Source: Ignavibacteriota bacterium
GTDB taxonomy: Bacteria; Bacteroidota; Ignavibacteria; UBA10030
Length of the DNA: 64,000 nt
NCBI GenBank assembly: GCA_963727825.1
Contig: CAVSHO010000001.1
Span: 96,001 to 160,000 of the forward strand
Direction: 5' to 3'
Shown: one piece after another, positions 18,350-59,400 of the stretch
Numbering within the stretch: the stretch's first letter is position 1
How the letters are laid out: every line of letters begins with the position of its first letter
Made by a program: the position numbers and the translations under genes
Notes under the pieces: generated by a model
Databases searched by the model: none
What the model saw: the letters and a program-made list of their open reading frames with translations, nothing else
What the model was told of the DNA's origin: nothing

Positions 18350-18775
18350 ATGATCATAAAACAACTTTCAGTATTTCTCGAAAATAAGTCGGGCCGACTG
18401 ACTGAAGTGACCGAAACATTAGCTTCAGCACAAATTAATATCTCTGCTTTCAGTATTGCCGATACCTCTGAATTCGGCATTCTGCGGATGATAGTTAGCA
18501 AGCCGGAAGCAGCGGAAGCTGCATTGAAGGCAAAGGGGATTTCTGTTCATATCACAGAAGTTGTCGCTGTCGTGGTTCCGCACAATCCTGGTGGTTTACA
18601 CAGGACATTAGAAATTCTTTCTTCCGAAGGAATTAGCGTAGAATATATGTACGCATTTGCTATGGGCGATCGTGCGACTGTGATCATTCGTACCGATGCA
18701 ATTCAACAGACCATTACAGTTTTACAGAAGCATAAAATGGAATTGCTCAAATCAAGCGACATCTATGAAATTTAA
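18350..18775 (+). CDS. Tandem ACT-domain amino-acid-binding protein
   Basis: KQLSVFLENKSGRL, ADTSEFGILR, VEYMYAF; usual partner of paaK in anaerobes. Confidence 0.88.
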   Translation: MIIKQLSVFLENKSGRLTEVTETLASAQINISAFSIADTSEFGILRMIVSKPEAAEAALKAKGISVHITEVVAVVVPHNPGGLHRTLEILSSEGISVEYMYAFAMGDRATVIIRTDAIQQTITVLQKHKMELLKSSDIYEI

Positions 18776-18858
18776 ATACTAAACTCCAAATGACAATAAA
18801 ACAAATCTCAAACAAGCTCCAACAAAAAAATATCAAATAATAAATCTGAAATCACAAC
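18774..18858 (+). repeat. Degenerate AAATNNN heptamer array, left flank of four-helix-bundle gene
   Basis: AAATACT AAACTCC AAATGAC ... AAATCTC ... AAATATC AAATAAT AAATCTG AAATCAC. Confidence 0.65.
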
Positions 18859-18868
18859 TAGTTTTCAA

Positions 18869-19228
18869 ATGGATAAAATCCAAATAAAAAAGCCATACGA
18901 TCTTGAAGAACGGACGCTCCAGTATACAAAAGACGTTATTTCTCTGGTTAGTAAGGCAACAAAGAATTTATCAAATATTGAAATCGCAAAACAATTGATT
19001 CGATCATCGGGATCAGTGGGAGCTAATTATATTGAGGCAAATGAATCTTTGGGAAAGAAAGACTTTGTGATGCATGCACGGATAGCTCGTAAGGAGGCAA
19101 AAGAAAATCGTTATTGGCTACAGTTAATGGAATGCAACGACTATTTGCAACCATTAAGAGATCAATTGACTCAAGAATCAACGGAATTATTGAAAATTCT
19201 TAGCAAGATCATTGAGAAATCAACTTGA
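18869..19228 (+). CDS. Four helix bundle protein (TIGR02436 / 23S rRNA-IVP / Avd-like)
   Basis: DLEERT, QLIRSSGSVGANYIEA, KEAKENRYWL. Confidence 0.9.
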   Translation: MDKIQIKKPYDLEERTLQYTKDVISLVSKATKNLSNIEIAKQLIRSSGSVGANYIEANESLGKKDFVMHARIARKEAKENRYWLQLMECNDYLQPLRDQLTQESTELLKILSKIIEKST

Positions 19229-19284
19229 TTCGGAATTTTGAGTTTGTTATTTGTTTGTGATTTGGGTGTTGATAATTGGAATTT
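19226..19284 (+). repeat. Degenerate NNNATTT heptamer array, right flank, complementary to 18774-18858
   Basis: GGAATTT TGAGTTT GTTATTT ... GTGATTT GGGTGTT GATAATT GGAATTT. Confidence 0.65.
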
Positions 19285-19308
19285 CAATTAAAGATATTGG
19301 ATAAGTTT

Positions 19309-23276: not shown

Positions 23277-24542
23277 TTAAAAATCCAAATATGTTCCGCG
23301 TTTGATAACTTTAGCGACGTGGTTTGTTCCAAAATGATAAGCAAGATACCGATAGCTTGGAACATCGTAAAGCACAATGTCTGCTTGTTTGCCGATTTCA
23401 ATGCTGCCAAGTTTCTCTGACAGTCCAAGAGCAGCCGCTCCGTTGAGCGTGGAAGCGGTAATAGTTTCTTCCGGCGTCATTGACATTTGCGTGCAGGCAA
23501 TTGTCATCATCAATGGCATGCAATAAGACATACAAGTACCAGGATTGAAATTTGATGCAATCGCTAGCGGAATACCAGCATCAATAATCTTCCTCGCGGG
23601 CGAATAATCGCAGTGAAGGAAGAACGAAACGCCGGGAAGAATGGTTGCAATAGTTCCGGATTGTTTTAATGCAGCAATTCCTTCATCGTTGATCTGCTCA
23701 AGATGGTCGGCAGAGATCGCTCCCATTTCTGCTGCAAGTTTCGATGCGCCAATCTGCGTTAGCTGATCTGCATGAATTTTTATGTTCATACCAAGCGATT
23801 TAGCTGTTTTAAAAATTCTCCTGCATTGTTCAACAGAAAAATATCCTTGCTCGCAAAAAGCATCGCAGAATTTTGCAAGTTTGCGCTGCGCAATGTAAGG
23901 AAGCATCCGTGTGCAAATGAGATCAACATAACCGTCGGAATTGTTCTTGAATTCCGGTGGTACTGCGTGAGCTCCGAGAAATGTCGATGTAATGTCCATT
24001 AGACATTCGTCGGCAAGCTCATTTATCGCTTCCAGTATTCTAATTTCATCTTTTTCGCTCAATCCGTACCCGGATTTAATTTCTACAGTTGTTGTTCCCT
24101 CCGTGAGCATTGCATCCAGATGCCGGTGAGCGAGTTTCTTCAATTCCTTTTTAGTTGCGGTTCGTGTTGCGTTAACAGTATTGAGAATTCCTCCGCCAGC
24201 TTGTGCAATCTCCTGATATGTTTTTTCACGAAGCGATGGATTCCCACCTTCAGCTCGCAATGCAAACTCATTTTCTCGTGTTCCAGCAAAAATCAAATGC
24301 GTATGTGAATCTACAAACCCAGGCAGTCCAACCAAATCTGTAGCATCAATAATGTCGATATTTTCATTCAATGTTTGCGTGAATTCGGCGTTTCGACCAA
24401 TCCCTTTGAAGGTTCCGTTTTCAATTAATACAGTTGCGTTTTCGATAATGCCGAGATCACGCATTTCTTTGCCGGATTTGAACGGCATGCCATTCGCGCG
24501 GACAGTAACGAGTTGCTTGATATTTTTTATGAGAAGATTCAT
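23277..24542 (-). CDS. hutI: Imidazolonepropionase
   Basis: PGFVDSHTH, GTTTVEIKSGYGL, FLGAH, HADQL, SADHLE. Confidence 0.94.
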   Translation of the reverse strand: MNLLIKNIKQLVTVRANGMPFKSGKEMRDLGIIENATVLIENGTFKGIGRNAEFTQTLNENIDIIDATDLVGLPGFVDSHTHLIFAGTRENEFALRAEGGNPSLREKTYQEIAQAGGGILNTVNATRTATKKELKKLAHRHLDAMLTEGTTTVEIKSGYGLSEKDEIRILEAINELADECLMDITSTFLGAHAVPPEFKNNSDGYVDLICTRMLPYIAQRKLAKFCDAFCEQGYFSVEQCRRIFKTAKSLGMNIKIHADQLTQIGASKLAAEMGAISADHLEQINDEGIAALKQSGTIATILPGVSFFLHCDYSPARKIIDAGIPLAIASNFNPGTCMSYCMPLMMTIACTQMSMTPEETITASTLNGAAALGLSEKLGSIEIGKQADIVLYDVPSYRYLAYHFGTNHVAKVIKRGTYLDF

Positions 24543-24632
24543 AAAATATTATTTTCTATTGATAGCAAGAAAAGAAGATAATGCTTTGGAATCAAGCCAA
24601 CGCACTAACAGAGTCAAGCCATTGTAAAGTGA

Positions 24633-26294
24633 TTAAAATTTTATCATAGGAACATTAATTGACCATTTCTTTGCATTATCAATTGCACGTTTGTATCCAG
24701 CATCAGCGTGGCGAATAATACCTAAACCGGGATCGTATGTCAATACTCTTTGCAATCTCGCTTCTGCTTCTTTGGTTCCATCGGCGACAACAACCATTCC
24801 AGCGTGGATAGATAAACCGATGCCAACTCCGCCGCCGTGGTGAACACTTACCCAGCTTGCACCGCCCGTTGCATTAAGAAGTGCATTAAGGATTGGCCAA
24901 TCTGCGATAGCGTCACTACCGTCAAGCATTTTTTCTGTTTCACGATTTGGCGACGCAACGCTGCCGCAATCGAGGTGGTCACGGCCAATGACGATAGGAG
25001 CTTTTACTTCTCCATTGGCAACAAGATCGTTGAAGATCTTTCCCATTTTTGCTCGTTCACCATACCCAAGCCAGCAGATGCGTGCCGGTAATCCCTGAAA
25101 CTCGACTTCCTTTTGAGCCTTATTAATCCAAGTGCATAACTGTTTATTCTGCGGAAATGTTTCCATCACTGCTTGGTCTGTGCGATAGATGTCTTCTGGA
25201 TCGCCTGAAAGAGCAACCCAACGGAATGGACCTTTGCCATCGCAGAAGAGTGGACGAATATATTCGGGCACAAAGCCGGGAATATCAAACGCCTTCTTCA
25301 CGCCATTTGCCAATGCTTCGCCGCGGATATTATTCCCATAGTCGAAAACAATGGCACCTTTCTGCTTCAGTTTCAACAAACCTTTCATATGATCAACGAT
25401 GGATGCTTTGGCGAGTGCAATGTATTTTTGAGGATCCTTTTTTCGAAGTTCGAGCGCTTTTGTATAAAGCATACCTGCAGGCACATAGCCGTTCAGGGTA
25501 TCGTGTGCAGATGTTTGATCGGTAACGATATCGGGCAGGAATTTCCCTGCCGCAATCTTTGGAATGATCTCTGCTGCATTCCCGAGTAGACCTACAGATA
25601 GAGGAATTTTCTTTTCTTTTGCCGCGCGAACTTGTGCGAGAGCATCATCAAGATTATTTGTCATTGTGTCTAAATAACTTGTCTCAAGGCGACGCTTGAT
25701 ACGATGCAGATCGACCTCAACAACAAGACAGGCGGCTCCGTTCATTGTTGCGGCGAGCGGCTGCGCTCCTCCCATACCGCCAAGGCCTGCGGTGAGCAAG
25801 AATTTGCCGGCAAGATTTTTTCCGAAATGTTTCGCTGCAGCTGCAGCAAATGTTTCGAATGTCCCTTGCAAAATCCCCTGCGTACCTATGTAAATCCAGC
25901 TTCCTGCTGTCATTTGTCCGTACATTGTCAGACCAAGTCCTTCAAGCCGGCGGAATTCTTCCCACGTTGCCCACTTTGGTACAAGCATAGAATTGCTGAT
26001 GAGAACGCGCGGTGCGTTTTCATGCGTCTTGAAGATGCCGACTGGCTTGCCGGATTGGACAAGCAATGTTTCATCATTCTCTAAATTCTTTAGGCTTTCA
26101 ACAATCGCATCGAAGCATTGCCAATTGCGGGCAGCCTTTCCTGTGCCGCCATAAACTATCAACTCCTGTGGTTTCTCGGCAACTTCCGGATCGAGATTGT
26201 TCATGAGCATCCGTAAAGCGGCTTCCTGAATCCAGCCCTTGCAGGTGAGTCGCATGCCGCGTGGTGCACGAATATTATGTCGTTTTAATTTCAT
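24633..26294 (-). CDS. hutU: Urocanate hydratase
   Basis: [54 protein letters not shown]. Confidence 0.97.
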
Positions 26295-41128: not shown

Positions 41129-41136
41129 AGCAATTT

Positions 41137-41217
41137 TCAGTGATGAGTGAAGAGTGGTCAATGATAAGCGATAAGCGAGTGTAATAAAGTTTGAAGTAAA
41201 AATTCGTCACTCGTCAC
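41137..41217. repeat. Opposed heptamer arrays with no gene between
   Basis: TCAGTGA TGAGTGA AGAGTGG TCAATGA TAAGCGA TAAGCGA ... TCGTCAC TCGTCAC. Confidence 0.7.
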
Positions 41218-41771
41218 TATCCATTAATCTTTGATTTTAGTTTTCGTTCAGTCAATAAAATTCCGGCGATGGTTTTGCTATCCCCAATTTCGCCGCGCGC
41301 GATCATTTCTACGGCCGTGAAAAATGGAATATATTCAACCGTAAGACTTTGTTCGCCTTCATCAAGGTTTTGTCCGTGTTCGGATTTTTTCAGTCCGGTA
41401 GCAAGATATATATGAAGTACTTCGTTGCAGAACCCCGGTGTAGTGAACATTGTAGTAAGTTTTTCATACTTATCTGCTATGTAGCCGGTTTCTTCCTGTA
41501 GTTCACGTTGAGCAGCTATAAGCGGATCTTCATTGGGTTCAAGCTTTCCAGCAGGAACTTCCAAAATGAATTTTTTGTGTGGATATCGGTACTGCCGAAC
41601 AAAAATCAAATTGCCGTTGTCGAGCAACGGTACGATAACACTTCCACCCGGGTGGCTTACAATTTCACGTTTACGGATGTTGCCGGAAACATCTTTGACC
41701 TCTTCGATAATTAAATCGATGATGCGGCCGTGATACAATCTTTCTGACTTAACTATTTTAGGGAGTGACAT
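41217..41771 (-). CDS. NUDIX hydrolase (ADP-ribose pyrophosphatase-like)
   Basis: RQYRYP, Nudix box PAGKLEPNEDPLIAAQRELQEETGY, TPGFCNE. Confidence 0.9.
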   Translation of the reverse strand: MSLPKIVKSERLYHGRIIDLIIEEVKDVSGNIRKREIVSHPGGSVIVPLLDNGNLIFVRQYRYPHKKFILEVPAGKLEPNEDPLIAAQRELQEETGYIADKYEKLTTMFTTPGFCNEVLHIYLATGLKKSEHGQNLDEGEQSLTVEYIPFFTAVEMIARGEIGDSKTIAGILLTERKLKSKING

Positions 41772-51750: not shown

Positions 51751-52914
51751 ATGAAGATTCACGAATATCAAGGAAAAGAAGTCCTAAGAAAGTTTGGAGT
51801 TCCTGTTCCCAAAGGAGAAGTGGCATTCACGATTGATGATGCTGTGAAAGCGGCTGAGAAAATCGGCGGAAGCATATGGGTTGTCAAAGCGCAAATTCAA
51901 GCTGGCGGACGCGGCAAAGGCGGCGGTGTTAAAATAGCTCGAAGTTTAGAAGAAGTTCGCGAGCGCGCCGGTGAAATTCTCGGCATGCGCCTCATTACGC
52001 ATCAAACAGGACCGGAAGGGCGCATCGTCCGTCGCTTACTTGTTGAGCAAGGGATGAATATTGCAAAGGAAATGTATGTAGGCATTACGCTGGATCGTCA
52101 GCGCTCGCAAAATGTTGTCATGGTCTCGACGGAAGGCGGAGTGGAGATTGAAAAGGTCGCTGTCGAAGCGCCGGATAAAATATTGAAAGAAACAATCAAT
52201 CCTGTAATCGGATTTCAACAGTTTCAAGCTCGGACACTTTGCTTCGGCCTCGGGCTAACAGGCGATGCATTTAAAAACGGAGTCAAATTTTTATTAGCTC
52301 TCTACAAAGCATATGAAGCTACCGATGCGTCTTTGGCTGAAATTAATCCGCTCGTCATTACGCAGGAAGGGCATGTCGTTGCGCTCGATGCTAAAATCAA
52401 CTTTGATGACAACGCGCTTTTCCGCCATCCGGAATACGAGCAATTGCGCGATATTGATGAAGAAGAACCCCTTGAAGTGGAAGCCGCTGCATCCAATCTT
52501 AATTATATAAAACTCGATGGCAATGTCGGCTGTATGGTTAATGGTGCCGGGCTTGCAATGGCGACAATGGATATTATCAAGCTTGCGGGCGGAATGCCTG
52601 CGAACTTTCTTGATGTAGGCGGCGGCGCAAGCGCAGAGACGGTGGAAGCCGGATTTAAAATTATTTTGAAAGATGAGAATGTTAAAGCCATTCTTATTAA
52701 TATTTTTGGTGGTATTGTACGTTGCGATCGTGTTGCGACTGGGGTTGTAGAAGCTGCGAAAAATATCGATGTGCAAGTTCCTATCGTCGTACGTCTCGCC
52801 GGAACGAACGCCGAACTCGCAGCTGAGATTTTGAAAAGCTCTGGATTAAAATTTCTTGTCGCTGGAACGTTAAAAGAAGCAGCAGAGAAAGTAACAAGTG
52901 CTATTGCGGCGTGA
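51751..52914 (+). CDS. sucC: Succinyl-CoA synthetase beta subunit
   Basis: IHEYQGK, AGGRGKGGGV, EINPL, VNGAGLAMATMD, NFLDVGGG, NIFGGIVRCD. Confidence 0.96.
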   Translation: MKIHEYQGKEVLRKFGVPVPKGEVAFTIDDAVKAAEKIGGSIWVVKAQIQAGGRGKGGGVKIARSLEEVRERAGEILGMRLITHQTGPEGRIVRRLLVEQGMNIAKEMYVGITLDRQRSQNVVMVSTEGGVEIEKVAVEAPDKILKETINPVIGFQQFQARTLCFGLGLTGDAFKNGVKFLLALYKAYEATDASLAEINPLVITQEGHVVALDAKINFDDNALFRHPEYEQLRDIDEEEPLEVEAAASNLNYIKLDGNVGCMVNGAGLAMATMDIIKLAGGMPANFLDVGGGASAETVEAGFKIILKDENVKAILINIFGGIVRCDRVATGVVEAAKNIDVQVPIVVRLAGTNAELAAEILKSSGLKFLVAGTLKEAAEKVTSAIAA

Positions 52915-52923
52915 AGAAAGTTA

Positions 52924-52951
52924 TGAGTGACCAGTGATGAGTGATCATTGG
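52924..52951 (+). repeat. NNAGTGA heptamer array
   Basis: TGAGTGA CCAGTGA TGAGTGA TCATTGG; CAGTGATGAGTGA identical to 41138-41150. Confidence 0.6.
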
Positions 52952-52962
52952 ATAAAAGTGAA

Positions 52963-53166
52963 ATGATGAAACGATCTATAAAAACGGTTGTTCATAAATA
53001 TCAATTAGGCAAAGAACCGAATAATTTTTCCTATTGGCGGAGACAGAGAGTTTCGCGTCGACTTTCCACCGCAGAGGAACTACGTAATTTATTTATCACA
53101 ATGAATTATGGAACTCGACCAAAATTTCAAAGAGTTTGTCGAATTATTAAACCGAAACAGAGTTGA
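52963..53166 (+). CDS. Small basic protein, probable partner of the downstream nucleotidyltransferase (TA-like pair)
   Basis: YWRRQ..RRLSTAEELR..KFQRVCRII; overlaps the start of the next gene. Confidence 0.55.
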   Translation: MMKRSIKTVVHKYQLGKEPNNFSYWRRQRVSRRLSTAEELRNLFITMNYGTRPKFQRVCRIIKPKQS

Positions 53167-53589
53167 ATATTTAATCGTTGGCGGTTATGCAGTTATTGCA
53201 CATGGTTACCCAAGGTCTACCGGTGATCTCGATGTATGGGTAAATCCGACACAATCGAACGCAAAAAAAGTTCTTCATGTATTAAAAGAGTTTGGCTTTG
53301 AAAAATTAAAAACAACTGAAAAAGACTTATTCACAAAAAGGAACAATTCTACAGTTTGGATATGTACCGTTAAGGATTGACATTCTTACCGGTATTGATG
53401 GAGTTGAATTTGAAGAAGCTTTTCCCGAAAAGTTTTAAAAGAAGTATTATGGTATTTTAATCAATTTTATAGGTAAAGAGGCGCTCAAAAAAAAATAAAA
53501 TTAGCGCTGGTAGGAATAGAGATTTGGCAGATTTAGAAGAACTAAAAGAAAAAAACGAAAGAAATAATTTTTATCTCTCTACTCAATGA
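53108..53589 (+). pseudogene. Nucleotidyltransferase (DUF6036-like); frameshifted, with an in-frame TAA
   Basis: YLIVGGYAV..HGYPRSTGDLDVWV; downstream frames give PLRIDILTGIDGVEF and NKISAGRNRDLADLE. Confidence 0.72.
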
Positions 53590-53612
53590 CTCATAGACTC
53601 AACTACTTAAAT
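53581..53612 (+). repeat. ACTCANNN octamer array upstream of gatB
   Basis: ACTCAATG ACTCATAG ACTCAACT ACTTAAAT. Confidence 0.7.
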
Positions 53613-53653
53613 ACTTTTTTCCTTTTTCATTTGATACTTTTGCATTGAATACT

Positions 53654-55111
53654 ATGCCCTGGAATGAAAATTACGAACCTGTTATTGGACTTGAAGTCCA
53701 TGCAGAATTATTAACCAAGTCGAAAGCATTCTGCAGTTGTTCGACAAAATTTGGAAGTGATCCGAACTCTAACGTTTGTCCGGTCTGCCTTGGTATGCCG
53801 GGAGTGCTTCCTGTTTTGAACAAAAACCTTGTTGAGTTCATTATGAGGATGGGTTTGGCGACAAACTGTACCATCGCGCCTAAATCTATCTTTGCCAGAA
53901 AAAATTATTTTTATCCGGATTTGCCAAAAGGTTATCAGATATCGCAGTATGAAGAACCGATATGTGCAAACGGTTGGCTGGATGTTGAACTGAAGGATGG
54001 AACGATAAGGCGAATCGGCATAACACGAATTCATATGGAAGAAGATGCTGGCAAATCGATTCACGATCAGGACACAGATACTCTTGTGGATGTGAACCGG
54101 TGCGGCGTTCCACTTATCGAGATCGTTAGTGAACCCGATATGCATACGCCGCATGAGGCATATCAGTATCTTTATATGATTCGCCAGATCGTTACATATC
54201 TTGGCATCTGTGATGGCAATATGGAAGAAGGAAGTCTTCGGTGCGATGCGAATGTTTCTGTCCGAAAAAAAGGCGAAACAAAATTAGGAACAAAACTTGA
54301 AGTAAAGAATTTGAATTCTTTTCGCTTTGTTGAGAAAGCGCTCGAATATGAAATCAATCGTCAAATAGAGGCACTTGAAAATGGAGAACAGATAATTCAA
54401 CAGACATTACTCTGGGATGCCGATAAAGGAGTTTGCGTTCCGATGCGCATGAAAGAGGAAGCACATGATTATCGCTACTTCCCCGATCCTGATTTAGTGC
54501 CCGTGCTGGTAAATCAAGAGTGGATAGATGATGTGAAAGCAAAGCTGCCGGAGCTCCCGATTGTTCGGCGCGATCGCTACATCAGAGAATTCAAATTACC
54601 AAAGTACGATGCCGATATTATTACCACAGAGCGCGAACTGGCGGACTATTTTGATGGGATCATTGAAAACCTAAAAAAGAAGGATGAAGAATCATACAAG
54701 ATCGCAAGCAATTGGACGATGGGAGACGTTTTGCGTGTAGTTAATGATCAGCATATTGCGGTTTCAGATTTCCCGATTACGCCGAAGAATCTCTCCGATA
54801 TGATCAATCTTATTATTGATAGCACTATCAGCGGCAAGATTGCCAAAGATATCTTTGAGGAAATGCTGAAAACAAAAGAATCGCCCAAAGCGATTGTCGA
54901 GAAGAAGGGCTTAGTGCAAGTAAGTGATGTTTCTGCAATCGAAAAAGTAATTGATGAAATTCTCGCGAACAACCAGGGACAGGTTGAGCAATATAAAAGT
55001 GGGAAGCAGCAGGTCTTCGGTTTCTTTGTTGGACAAACAATGAAGGCAATGAAGGGGAAAGCAAATCCGAAAGTGGTAAATGAGGTGTTACAGCGGAAGC
55101 TGAGTCTATGA
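53654..55111 (+). CDS. gatB: Asp/Glu-tRNA amidotransferase subunit B
   Basis: [48 protein letters not shown]. Confidence 0.97.
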
Positions 55112-55144
55112 GTCGTTGAGTTTTTGAGTCATTGAGTTGTTGAG
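55101..55144 (+). repeat. TGAGTNNN octamer array, left flank of four-helix-bundle gene, overlapping the gatB stop
   Basis: TGAGTCTA TGAGTCGT TGAGTTTT TGAGTCAT TGAGTTGT TGAG. Confidence 0.8.
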
Positions 55145-55170
55145 GTAAGATATTAAAGTGAATAGATAGA

Positions 55171-55524
55171 ATGAATCGGTTTAAGAATTTAAGAGTTTAT
55201 GAGAAAGCACTTGACTATTCATTTGCTGTTCGTCAATGTGTAAGGAAATTTCCGAAGGAAGAAATGTTTGGATTAATCTCTCAATGGCGAAGAGCAGCAG
55301 ACTCAATTGTTTTAAATATTGCAGAAGGCGCAGGAAATTCATCAAAATTGGAATATGCCAGGTTCTTGGATATTGCTATTCGTTCCGGGTTTGAATGTTT
55401 AGCTTGTTTAGATATCGCGATTCGGAGTAAATATGTAGATAAAATAAATTATGACGAACTCTCTTCTCAGACAAATGAAATTATTGCCATGCTGGATGGA
55501 TTGAAAAAAGCAATCAAGAAATAA
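55171..55524 (+). CDS. Four helix bundle protein (23S rRNA-IVP / Avd-like)
   Basis: FKNLRVYEKA, FPKEEMFGLISQWRRAADSIVLNIAEG, FLDIAIRSGFE. Confidence 0.9.
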   Translation: MNRFKNLRVYEKALDYSFAVRQCVRKFPKEEMFGLISQWRRAADSIVLNIAEGAGNSSKLEYARFLDIAIRSGFECLACLDIAIRSKYVDKINYDELSSQTNEIIAMLDGLKKAIKK

Positions 55525-55525
55525 T

Positions 55526-55558
55526 ACTCATAGACTCAACGACTAATTACTCAAAGAC
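55526..55558 (+). repeat. ACTCANNG octamer array, right flank, complementary to 55101-55144
   Basis: ACTCATAG ACTCAACG ACTAATT ACTCAAAG AC. Confidence 0.8.
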
Positions 55559-55576
55559 ATAAATAAAGGATTAACA

Positions 55577-56335
55577 ATGCGAAACAAAGTAATTGCAGGT
55601 AACTGGAAAATGTACAAAGATCTAAATGAATCAACAGAACTTTTAAACGGTCTTAAAACGAAACTTACTGTGCTGCCAAACGGTGTGAAGGCGATTGTGT
55701 GCCCGCCTTATGTCTCGCTTGCATTTGCGCAAAAATTGCTCGAAGGCAGTCCAATCGCGCTCGGTGCACAGAATATGTATCACGAGGATGAAGGCGCTTT
55801 CACGGGTGAAGTCTCGCCGAAAATGTTGAAATCTGCCGGATGCCAATATGTAATCATCGGACATTCAGAGAGACGGCAGTATTTCAAAGAGACGAATGAA
55901 TTTATCAACAAGAAAGCCAAGAAAGCTCTTGCCTCCGGATTGATTCCAATAATTTGCGTGGGCGAAACATTGGATGAACGCGAAAAGAATATTACCGATC
56001 AGATTGTAAGCGTGCAGGTGAAAGGATGTTTGAAAGATATTCCGGCCGCTGATGTCGAGAAGCTGATCATCGCATACGAGCCGGTGTGGGCAATTGGTAC
56101 CGGTAAAGTCGCAACTCCGCAGCAAGCGCAGGAAGTGCACCAGCTTATTCGCAAACTCATCGGGCAAATATATAGCTGGGCAACTGCCGAGAAAGTTATT
56201 CTTCAATACGGCGGCAGCGTGAAACCGGAAAACGCAAAAGAATTGTTGCATCAACCAGACATCGACGGCGCACTTGTCGGCGGTGCTTGCCTAAAAGCAG
56301 ATTCGTTTGCAGCGATTGTGCAGGCAGCAGTTTAA
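55577..56335 (+). CDS. tpiA: Triosephosphate isomerase
   Basis: AGNWKM, GHSERR, AYEPVWAIGTG, YGGSVK, LVGGA. Confidence 0.97.
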   Translation: MRNKVIAGNWKMYKDLNESTELLNGLKTKLTVLPNGVKAIVCPPYVSLAFAQKLLEGSPIALGAQNMYHEDEGAFTGEVSPKMLKSAGCQYVIIGHSERRQYFKETNEFINKKAKKALASGLIPIICVGETLDEREKNITDQIVSVQVKGCLKDIPAADVEKLIIAYEPVWAIGTGKVATPQQAQEVHQLIRKLIGQIYSWATAEKVILQYGGSVKPENAKELLHQPDIDGALVGGACLKADSFAAIVQAAV

Positions 56336-56363
56336 TCTTTCGTTTTACGTAATAGTACTAAAT

Positions 56364-56400
56364 GGCAACTTTCATAGCAGGGGAGTTGCCTTTTGTTTTT
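56364..56400 (+). terminator. Rho-independent terminator after tpiA
   Basis: GGCAACTTTC-loop-GGGAGTTGCC followed by TTTTGTTTTT. Confidence 0.7.
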
Positions 56401-56460
56401 CTCTACTAATCAGTAAATTGAATTATAAACAACCTATAACACATCTCGTGAGGTGCCGCT

Positions 56461-59400
56461 ATGACACGCCGCTTCGTTCTGTTTTTTTCATGTTTGCTAT
56501 TTATTCTCTACAGCATGTTCGCGCAGGAGTCGCGTTTACTCCGGTTTCCTGCTATCCATGGAAATCAAATTGTATTTACCTACGCCGGTGATCTCTACGC
56601 GGTCGCGGCAACAGGAGGTGTTGCCCGTAAATTGACAAACGATGTCGGTTTTGAAATGTTTGCTCATTTTTCGCCCGATGGAAAACAAATCGCTTTTACA
56701 GGTCAATACGACGGGAACACTGAAGTGTATCTCATGCCAGCAGAAGGTGGAGTGCCGAAACGACTAACATTTACCGCGACACTCGGCCGCGATGATGTTT
56801 CCGATCGTATGGGACCAAACAATATTGTCATGGGCTGGAAAGATGATAAACACGTTGTCTTTCGTTCGCGGTGGACCGAGTTTAATGATTTTAAAGGACA
56901 ATTGTACCTCGCATCGGTCGAGGGAGGAATTCCTGAACAACTCCCGCTGCCGCGCGGCGGATTTTGTTCCTACTCTCCCGATGGAAAAAAACTTGCCTAC
57001 AACCGGGTGTTCCGTGAATTCAGAACGTGGAAGCGATATCGCGGCGGTCAGGCCGACGATATCTGGATCTATGATTTTGAAACCAAACAGACGATCAACA
57101 TCACCAATAATCCTGCACAGGATATTTTCCCGATGTGGAGCGGGAATATGATATATTTTATTTCTGATCGCGACGAGAACAAGAGGATGAACCTTTACTC
57201 GTACGATTTGAATACGAAGGAGACAAAGAAGCTTACAGATTTCACAGAGTATGATGTCAAGTTTCCGTCGCTCGGCGATCATGCGATCGTATTCGAAAAT
57301 GGCGGCTTCATCTATACATATGATTTCGCAAGCGGAAAAACAGAAAAGGTCACGATCTCCATTAATGATGATTTCGACGGTGGCCGCGGCGGATTGGTGG
57401 ATGTAAGTAAGAATATTACAAATTACGAAATTGCTCCCGACGGCAGCCGGGCATTATTCGGTGCACGGGGCGATATCTTTACCGTACCAGTGAAGTACGG
57501 CAACGTCCGCAATTTGACGAAAACCCCTGGCGTCCATGAGCGTAATTCCAAATGGTCGCCGGATGGTAAATCGATTGCGTACATCTCCGATGCAAGTGGA
57601 GAAGATGAGATTTATGTGATGCCGCAAGACGGAAACGGAACACCGACCCAGATTACTACAAAAGGCGATGTCTATAAATATTACCTTCTCTGGTCTCCGG
57701 ATTCGAAAAAAATACTGTGGGCGGATAAGCAGCAGAGGCTGCAATATATTGATCTTGAGTCGAAGAAAGTGACGCTGATAATGCAGTCGAGGGTGTGGGA
57801 GTTCACTGATTATGCGTGGTCGCCCGACAGCAAGTGGATTGCATTCGCAAAGCCGGAAGAAGAAGTCATGACGAAACTTTGTTTGTATTCCCTAGAAACT
57901 CAGCAAGTGATCGAAGTAACGGATGGTTGGTTCTCATCCTATGAACCCGCATTCAGCTCGGATGGAAAGTACATCTTTTTTGTATCCAACCGGACATTTA
58001 ACCCATCATACAGTCAAACAGAATGGAATCACGCCTACTTCGATATGGCGAAGATATATTTGCTGACGCTGTCGAAGGAGACAAAATCGCCATTCGAGCC
58101 GAAGAGCGATGAAGTGAAGATGCGGGAAGATAAGTCCGGGAAGTCGGAAGAAAAATCCGACAAAAAGAAGGATGAGAAAAAAGAAGTAGTTGTAAAAGTA
58201 GATGTAGATGGAATTCAGGGGCGCGTAACTGTGCTGCCTATTATCGGTTCGCGCTATCAGAATATCCAATCGGTGGAAGAAAAAGTTTATTATATCAGGC
58301 ACGGTATAAAAGATGAGAAATCAAAATTGTTCCTTTATGACTTGGACAAGCAAAAGGAAACCGAACTTGGCGATATAAATGGGTTTGAAATTTCAGCCGA
58401 CGGAAAAAAGATGCTTGTGGGACAGGAAAAATCTTACGCGATTATCGATCTCCCGACAGCGAAGTTAGAGATCAAGGAAAAACTGGACCTTTCCGACATG
58501 AAGGTAAAACTTGATCATCATGCGGAATGGATGCAAATCTATAACGAGTGCTGGCGGCAAATGCGTGATTTCTTCTTTGCCCCAAATATGAATGGCGTCG
58601 ATTGGGCAGGTATAAAAAAGAAATACGAAGTGCTGGTACCGTTTGTTAATCATCGGGCCGATCTTACATATATTATAGGTGAAATGATTGGTGAACTAAA
58701 TTCTGGACACACATATGTTGGTGGCGGGGATATGCCGAAAGCAGAACGCATCCAAACCGGATTGCTAGGCGCAAAAATTGAACGTGATGCGAAATCGGGT
58801 TACTACCGTATCGTTAAAATTTTGAAAGGCCAGAACTGGGATCAACAAGTTCGCTCGCCGTTGACAGAAATCGGCGTGAGCGCAAAAGAAGGCGACTATA
58901 TACTCGCCGTGGATGGCAAGCCGACAAACCAGATGACGGACATATATGAATCACTTGTCAATACCGTCGGGAAACAGGTGAAGTTGAAACTTAATACCGA
59001 ACCTAAAGACGCTGGCGCTCATGAGACAACCGTTATTCCAACTGGGAATGAACAACCGCTCTATTATTACAACTGGGTTCAGACGAACATCGAAAAAGTT
59101 TCCAAGGCAACGGACGGCAAAATAGGATATGTTCATGTGCCGGATATGGGAGTGCCGGGTCTCAATGAATTTGTGAAGTACTATTATCCACAGCTCCGTA
59201 AAGAAGGTCTCATTATTGATTGCCGCGGGAACGGCGGTGGTAATGTATCGCCGCAAATCATCGAACGGTTGCAGCGTAACATCGCTATGATTGATATTGC
59301 ACGCAACGGCTCTCCTGAGATCGATCCGGACGGAACAGTGCTCGGTCCGAAAGTTTTACTAATCGATGAATTCTCCGCATCCGATGGCGATATTGTTAGT

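Follow-up and report, generated by a model that had tools for sequence, protein, structure and literature searches.

Within the window, by which we mean the whole 64,000-nt stretch of Ignavibacteriota DNA analysed here, a short gene lies between the host genes gatB and tpiA and is flanked on both sides by tandem octamers, all on the plus strand. The last three codons and the stop of gatB (53654..55111; PF02934 and PF02637) fall inside the left array; the ORF list starts this gene at a TTG at 53645, and we took the ATG at 53654 as the likely start. The left arm (55101..55144) consists of 5.5 octamers, namely five TGAGTNNN units followed by TGAG; it is G-rich, carries TGA stops in all three frames, and provides the gatB 3′ end, CTG AGT CTA TGA (55100-55111). 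The four-helix-bundle gene that follows (55171..55524, stop TAA at 55522-24; PF05635/TIGR02436) encodes a basic protein of 117 aa (pI 9.2). The right arm (55526..55561) is the reverse complement of the left-arm unit in three ACTCA units (55526, 55534, and 55549) and two degenerate ones, at 55542 (ACTAA, with a next spacing of 7) and 55557. The likely tpiA ribosome-binding site AAGGA (55566..55570) lies outside the stem of the centroid fold, tpiA itself (55577..56335; PF00121) begins with the ATG at 55577, and a terminator-like hairpin is found 3′ of it at 56364-56390. The first-pass annotation had proposed this layout, with a gatB tail written in octamers, the gene, complementary octamers, and the tpiA ribosome-binding site, and the sequence bears it out. 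Two orphan arrays lie upstream on the same strand: a right-type octamer array before gatB (53581..53610), which contains the 13-mer of the cassette, and a left-type heptamer array 3′ of sucC (52915..52950), whose word family is that of the xdh-junction cassette on contig C9.

The octamer arrays around the four-helix gene are beyond chance. The left array is the sole run of at least four TGAGT octamers in the 3.12-Mb genome, for which the chance expectation of a five-unit run is about 1e-6. Positions 55101-55113 are the exact reverse complement of 55526-55538, and this 13-mer recurs at 53589, upstream of gatB. Against 200 dinucleotide shuffles in place of the right arm, the computed duplex of the two real arms (–32.8 kcal/mol) was the stronger in every case, and by computation the complementary ends are able to form a stem, albeit an interrupted one. 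No terminator-like site was found on the plus strand between gatB and tpiA, and the junction holds 5 promoter-like sites vs 9.4 in shuffles, a count that is uninformative. At the level of codons, third-position G in the gatB tail rose by 0.13 in 26 occupied alleles vs 0.04 in 11 empty ones, three rows giving no anchor; we base nothing on this difference.

The protein matches the PF05635 profile with 107.3 bits (cut-off 33.8) and TIGR02436 with 103.4 bits (cut-off 24), and no profile match beyond the PF05635 family, for example to a transposase, was obtained for the gene's product. The predicted model (pLDDT 96.4) is all-helical with four helices. A VIA-align search aligned it with 2gsc (Xcc0516; Z 20.8, rmsd 0.9, 112 aligned), with 2rld (BT_0352; Z 16.8), and with DGR Avd (8ub7, Z 15.1; 4dwl, Z 14.5), unrelated bundles scoring below the Avd matches with Z 13.3 or less. 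The solved entries 2gsc and 2rld have five chains each, which together with the available part of the literature on the family (PMC4990558) suggests a homopentamer. In the same part of that source, S23p/four-helix-bundle proteins are described as having no known function (PMC4990558). We found no known catalytic motif in the protein and no His or Tyr among the invariant columns of the alignment. Close homologues are labelled Ignavibacteriae or Bacteroidota, and with dN/dS of 0.02-0.15 in 12 within-type allele pairs the gene is, by this measure, under purifying selection. Over its first 7-9 residues the protein varies together with the repeat type; this N-terminal segment is a candidate for a specificity determinant, one that is confounded by ancestry.

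Searching 41 genomes for the junction returned 30 loci. The cassette, that is the gene with its two arms, lies between gatB and tpiA in 13 of the 15 same-genus relatives; L002 lacks the gene and keeps a right arm nearly identical to that of L004, and the remaining relative has no gatB beside tpiA. In that set the cassette was present at none of nine loci from other genera of the family and at one of five from other families, and a wider search recovered it at gatB-tpiA in further genomes too. Three repeat types (TGAGT, TGAGC, and TGAGA) occur at the junction, each with its own protein clade, L006 being a divergent TGAGT allele. The first-pass annotation had suggested comparing repeat type with protein clade, and repeat type does follow clade. 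Co-variation of the arms, also put forward there, was borne out: the majority base at unit position 5 is the same on both arms in 12 of 14 alleles, and the position-5 agreement of the arms (9.56 vs 4.58) was reached in none of 20000 permutations, a result that overstates the case because the alleles are related. An independent-pairs test of the tie between clade and repeat comprised only four pairs (median p 0.5), and linkage alone can explain why protein clade and repeat type travel jointly.

Identity in the gene is uncorrelated with identity in its neighbours (rho –0.02 with gatB and 0.06 with tpiA, 91 pairs), whereas gatB and tpiA correlate with each other (rho 0.61 over the 91 pairs). L001 and L016 illustrate this, with 91% nucleotide identity and dS 0.45 in the gene vs 76–77% and dS 1.97 and 1.31 in the flanks. 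Their flank windows range from 68 to 82%, the exceptions being 89% in the last window of gatB and 87% in a single distal window of tpiA, and no long co-converted flanks of the kind produced by endonuclease homing appear along them. Conversely, L016, L009, L014, L010, and L015 share 88–93% of gatB, yet all three repeat types are found among them. By these comparisons, both arms and the protein clade switch together, independently of gatB and tpiA ancestry, with swap borders near the arms. All five TGAGC alleles have a unit of the TGAGT kind at the outer end of the right arm, which suggests that crossovers fall inside the arm. Ordinary homologous recombination is visible as well, since L012 has gatB from one host group and tpiA from another. 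The arms themselves vary from 4 to 13 units on the left and from 2 to 20 on the right, and L005 has long internal duplications. A fixed number of five units per arm is ruled out by these counts, and a five-to-five match of units is not fixed because unit numbers vary so widely.

The first-pass annotation had taken the locus as one instance of a recurring system of a gene within inverted arrays, and the rest of the genome agrees with this: it has six PF05635 genes, each flanked by its own arms. A clade of 43 rows (SH-aLRT 93, in a tree of 118 columns with support given as "unstarred") is octameric on both arms in 38 of them; 29 of its rows lie at gatB-tpiA and 14 at eight other kinds of junction, and a subclade of six rows (support 99) carries one octamer across three junction kinds. 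An AAGTA group at ftsA-ftsZ scores period 7. Left and right arm have the same period in 73 of the 89 cassettes of the subfamily and different periods in 11, with no call in 5. The inverted match of the arms beat at least 99 of 100 shuffles in 80 of the 114 usable loci (119 in total), and the left-arm period is 7 in 40, 8 in 36, and another value in 3. Stops in all three frames are found in 67 of 114 left arms (41 expected) and in 60 right arms read antisense (35 expected). Several of the other sites lie in the same neighbourhood, presumably pruA-sucC-gatB-tpiA (we take the gene names other than gatB, tpiA, and uvrD as assumed), which suggests that cassettes hop locally. In relatives, the sites of the genome's cassettes hold full alleles, alleles of different types, arms without a gene (L197), or clean empty spacers of 22-25 nt (L199, L208, and L209). 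Full and empty alleles have spacers too diverged for alignment, and inspection by eye showed no target-site duplication between them.

Another cassette of the window, cassette 1 (18750-19290), had been described as having the same layout; it is likewise a gene within inverted arrays, but its polarity is opposite, with the C-rich arm first. Its site in relatives is full, reduced to arms (L197), occupied by arms with a palindromic insert (L198), or empty (L199). At ftsA-ftsZ (G000:C9 about 713000-713250; L194, minus strand), both arms are kept around a remnant of 21 codons, and of the gene itself this remnant in the source genome retains no more than the first and last codons; in relatives, this site is either occupied by a full cassette with a different repeat type or an empty spacer. 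One of the six four-helix genes (G000:C10:138943-139251) has an internal TAA, while relatives have an orthologue that is intact in some cases and broken or of another type in others.

The explanation that we favour, tentatively and with chances that we put a little short of even, is that the locus is a mobile cassette without a promoter of its own, and that its arms serve as recognition arrays for the pentamer that its protein is predicted to form. The gene with its arms, the joint switching of arms and clade, the discordance with gatB and tpiA, the position of swap borders close to the arms, the occupation of other junctions, the arms-only and empty alleles, and the purifying selection on the gene are observed. 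The four-helix gene would be transcribed from the host operon, because its neighbours are co-oriented with it and the junction has no terminator or convincing promoter. The protein would form a pentamer like that of Avd and read the invariant core of every 7-8-nt unit, a core that looks invariant in part because units were picked by it. One unit could occupy each protomer crevice, at both ends and in inverted orientation, and such binding would unite or protect the two cassette ends. The host's recombination machinery, crossing over within or beside the arms, could then copy the unit into an occupied, scarred, or neighbouring operon junction. The insert would be tolerable because its left arm carries stops in all three frames and its right arm stops short of the next ribosome-binding site, and deletion of the gene would leave arms-only scars.

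A different explanation, somewhat unlikely in our estimation, is that the element is an mRNA intervening sequence: selection would act on pairing of the arms within the gatB-gene-tpiA transcript, which would loop the gene out and bring the gatB stop near the tpiA start, and RNase III would cut the arms, as in ORF-bearing 23S rRNA elements; the unit would spread by recombination. The first-pass annotation had likewise stressed RNA pairing and its perfect 13-mer. The arms are indeed able to pair, both the MFE and the centroid fold closing an arm-to-arm stem and the centroid leaving AAGGA open. Cognate arm duplexes beat shuffles in 15 of 15 alleles (0-8 of 200), and the inverted matches that pass shuffles in 80 of 114 loci also fit this explanation. 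The genome encodes an RNase III gene, both neighbours are co-oriented with the cassette in 96 of the 129 cassettes scored (an opposite-strand neighbour in 9, no call on at least one side in 24), and a precedent exists in the Coxiella intervening sequence, which, in the available part of the source, has tandem heptamers and a terminal stem of 28 bp and is cleaved by RNase III (PMC4990558). Two signals lean towards RNA: an A at core position 2 is less frequent among left units (33 of 163) than among right units (50 of 144; Fisher p 0.005; 17 vs 7 when counted by locus, p 0.064), and the sense duplex is the more stable one in 49 of 80 loci (p 0.017) and in 12 of 15 alleles. Transcription-linked or strand-biased C-to-T deamination would yield the same signal at core position 2.

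The broader tests do not follow these narrower ones. Changes that keep a G-U wobble and changes that break it number 126 vs 134 in the 80 of 114 loci, and 129 vs 128 in 110 of 142 cassettes; arm variation is strand-symmetric in these tests. Arms pair equally well with same-type arms of other alleles, and pairing is a property of the type, not of the allele. The cognate longest match exceeds every same-type non-cognate match in just 2 of 14 alleles, which rules out the perfect 13-mer as a distinguishing feature. The fold of the whole 521-nt cassette is no better than that of shuffles (z –0.82), the helix is interrupted every 8 nt, and single and mismatched arms persist at other junctions. Moreover, the orphan array upstream of gatB pairs with the left array better than the right arm does (–39.9 vs –32.0), and the same is true in 5 of the 11 genus members scored (15 loci given, 13 parsed). 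What stands of the earlier emphasis on RNA is thus the capacity to pair and the lean of the narrower test, and its allele-specific part does not. We read RNA pairing as a consequence of the inverted design of a mobile cassette and not as its main selected feature; such pairing would explain why relatives are tolerated in rRNA.

Neutral processes could also be considered, with slippage expanding the units, template switching keeping the inverted copies alike, and the gene spreading by plain homologous recombination through conserved flanks and being kept for an unrelated benefit. The unstable copy numbers, the internal duplications of L005, the strand-symmetric variation, the flank recombination in L012, and the location of occupied sites between conserved genes, with 16 of 16 homologues of at least 60% identity adjoining gatB or tpiA, are what an unselected by-product would give. 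Copying from arm to arm predicts allele-specific identity, however, which is absent; the swaps join hosts that are only 76% identical, with no long shared flank, and neither the arrival at new junctions with both arms intact nor the universal 7-8-nt period is explained. We consider this account quite unlikely. Less probable still, and very doubtful to us, is a domesticated host regulator that binds the arrays and tunes the translation or stability of tpiA, gatB, and other operons with orphan arrays. Purifying selection on the gene is in keeping with such a role, as is a strict scan of the genome that found 26 mostly intergenic arrays of period 7 or 8 (43 in all) vs one in a shuffled genome, only three of the arrays adjoining a four-helix gene. 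Likewise, 23 orphan arrays resemble the genome's own cassettes, with a score of 221 vs 130 for random sets from other genera (0/5000) and 230 vs 178 for random same-genus sets (4/3000). But the whole cassette sets of two close relatives score 213 and 216, near the genome's own, and one orphan of G005 fits a cassette of the source genome better than G005's own (25 vs 16), which together indicate shared ancestry. Among ten orphans at the split-uvrD junction, a match to resident cassettes beyond chance was obtained for only 2, and p exceeded 0.8 for 4. In close relatives, the gene is lost cleanly or scars stay behind. As to whether orphans are simple scars, none of the 14 same-genus loci scored at each of five orphan junctions carries a four-helix gene, some of these loci being cut by contig ends, but one of 29 family-level loci has such a gene at the split-uvrD junction.

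The mobile cassette that we favour has several known relatives and analogues. ORF-bearing 23S rRNA intervening sequences (S23p; Coxiella and Leptospira) encode the same protein family. According to the available part of their description, they also resemble our locus in that their ends are complementary, that tandem heptamers precede the ORF in Coxiella, and that they are sporadically distributed and exchanged horizontally at a site conserved in the host (PMC4990558). The cassette lies between the protein-coding genes gatB and tpiA, outside 16S/23S rRNA, has tandem arrays at both ends with an interrupted stem, and gave a null result in the broad wobble test; its gene is under purifying selection, whereas the gene of the rRNA elements is described as decaying in that part of the source (PMC4990558). 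An ORF-bearing rRNA intervening sequence is excluded because the locus is outside rRNA, with gatB and tpiA as flanks and no Rfam match within 52700-56500. DGR Avd has the same fold (Z 14.5-15.1) and is, like the cassette protein, basic; according to the portion of the report available, it forms a pentamer whose RNA target lies immediately downstream of its own gene, and flipped bases of this RNA sit in crevices between the five protomers (10.1101/2023.10.23.563531); we also drew on what could be consulted of PMC6182149 for this comparison. The cassette protein scores 22.8 bits against the Avd equivalog NF033474, below the cut-off of 80 bits, and no reverse transcriptase lies near the cassette, the genome's single PF00078 match being on C9 and the locus on C1. 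A DGR or other RT-linked element is ruled out by this score and by the lack of an adjacent reverse transcriptase.

RAYT genes with their REP/REPIN sequences are similar in organisation: as far as the accessible part of the source describes them, a short gene is flanked by its own class of inverted repeat, repeat class is tied to protein class, and gene-less inverted doublets occur in extragenic space (PMC3337134). In contrast to RAYTs, the cassette protein is all-helical and has no HUH/Y tyrosine transposase; its units are tandem 7-8-mers and not palindromic REPs, and its orphans number tens, where REPs number hundreds in that part of the source (PMC3337134). The cassette likewise differs from an insertion sequence with terminal inverted repeats in having no transposase gene. 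Cyanobacterial STRRs are intergenic tandem heptamers, often in inverted pairs, and the cassette arms resemble them in both respects. We found no link in the literature between STRR arrays and the PF05635 family, and a search by word match, which covered few subscription papers and no supplements, returned no published account of such arrays around PF05635 genes outside rRNA.

The protein family is already known; what the locus contributes is a series of three allele types at a single site, together with tight borders of the swaps, a null result in the wobble test, and alleles reduced to arms. The function of S23p proteins and the movement of ORF-bearing intervening sequences have been open since the 1990s. 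The gatB-tpiA junction provides a natural allelic series for these questions, in which each of three clades of the protein goes with a repeat code distinguished by a single position, and in which states with arms alone or with nothing occur as well. If recognition of the arms by the protein is true, it would amount to a compact pentamer-repeat code and to mobility without a known transposase, in 60 of the 61 genomes searched in the family, and it would explain many orphan intergenic 7-8-nt arrays. A bolder proposal, which we hold to be unlikely, is that these cassettes form a class of transposase-free mobile elements analogous to REP/RAYT, in which an Avd-like pentamer reads its own 7-8-nt tandem code at both ends, homing to operon junctions proceeds by host recombination, cassettes of another type are displaced, gene-less arm doublets spread in trans, and ORF-bearing rRNA intervening sequences are copies that landed in rRNA.

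Gene-less arrays occur in several other settings. All 29 family loci scored for a UvrD/PcrA-like helicase have it divided between two genes (G000:C1:295521-297645; L281, L358-L387), and the junction between its halves contains a four-helix cassette (L373, 1 of 29), arm pairs of many types, or a stop-start spacer of 0-1 nt; by eye, several of these loci have complementary arm pairs of different words. In the window, 41135-41220 is a complementary heptamer arm pair with a short spacer and no gene, a spacer that other repeat types occupy in relatives. Long heptamer arrays of the CAATCCT/CAATCCG type are present at G000:C9:11-233, 875-993, and about 24450-26150, and the gene pairs that they surround are presumably of a small nucleotidyltransferase/HEPN-like kind. 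Short palindromic inserts with recurring GGCGGGCAAG or CCTGCC-type words lie in or beside arms (L007 left arm, L070, L375, L377, and L381), and the arms may be landing sites for other miniature elements.

At the sucC-gatB junction (52915-53610 in the window), the left array is built of heptamers and the right one of octamers, and the two are non-complementary. Between them lies a two-gene unit, with a gene of 67 aa and a frameshifted nucleotidyltransferase-like gene; the unit is intact in L063 and L068 (152 and 146 aa), and other relatives have nothing between the arrays. L078 has two toxin-antitoxin-like gene pairs at this junction, which we take to be of the HEPN/nucleotidyltransferase and PIN types, separated by a repeat of the sucC 3′ end. 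A right-type octamer array precedes gatB in 9 of the 11 cassette-bearing genus members scored (L062-L075) and is missing in L061, the allele that lost the cassette. The array at 53581-53610 is likely the scar of a sister cassette; the type of the pre-gatB array does not follow that of the left arm, yet it could pair with the left arm and bracket gatB.
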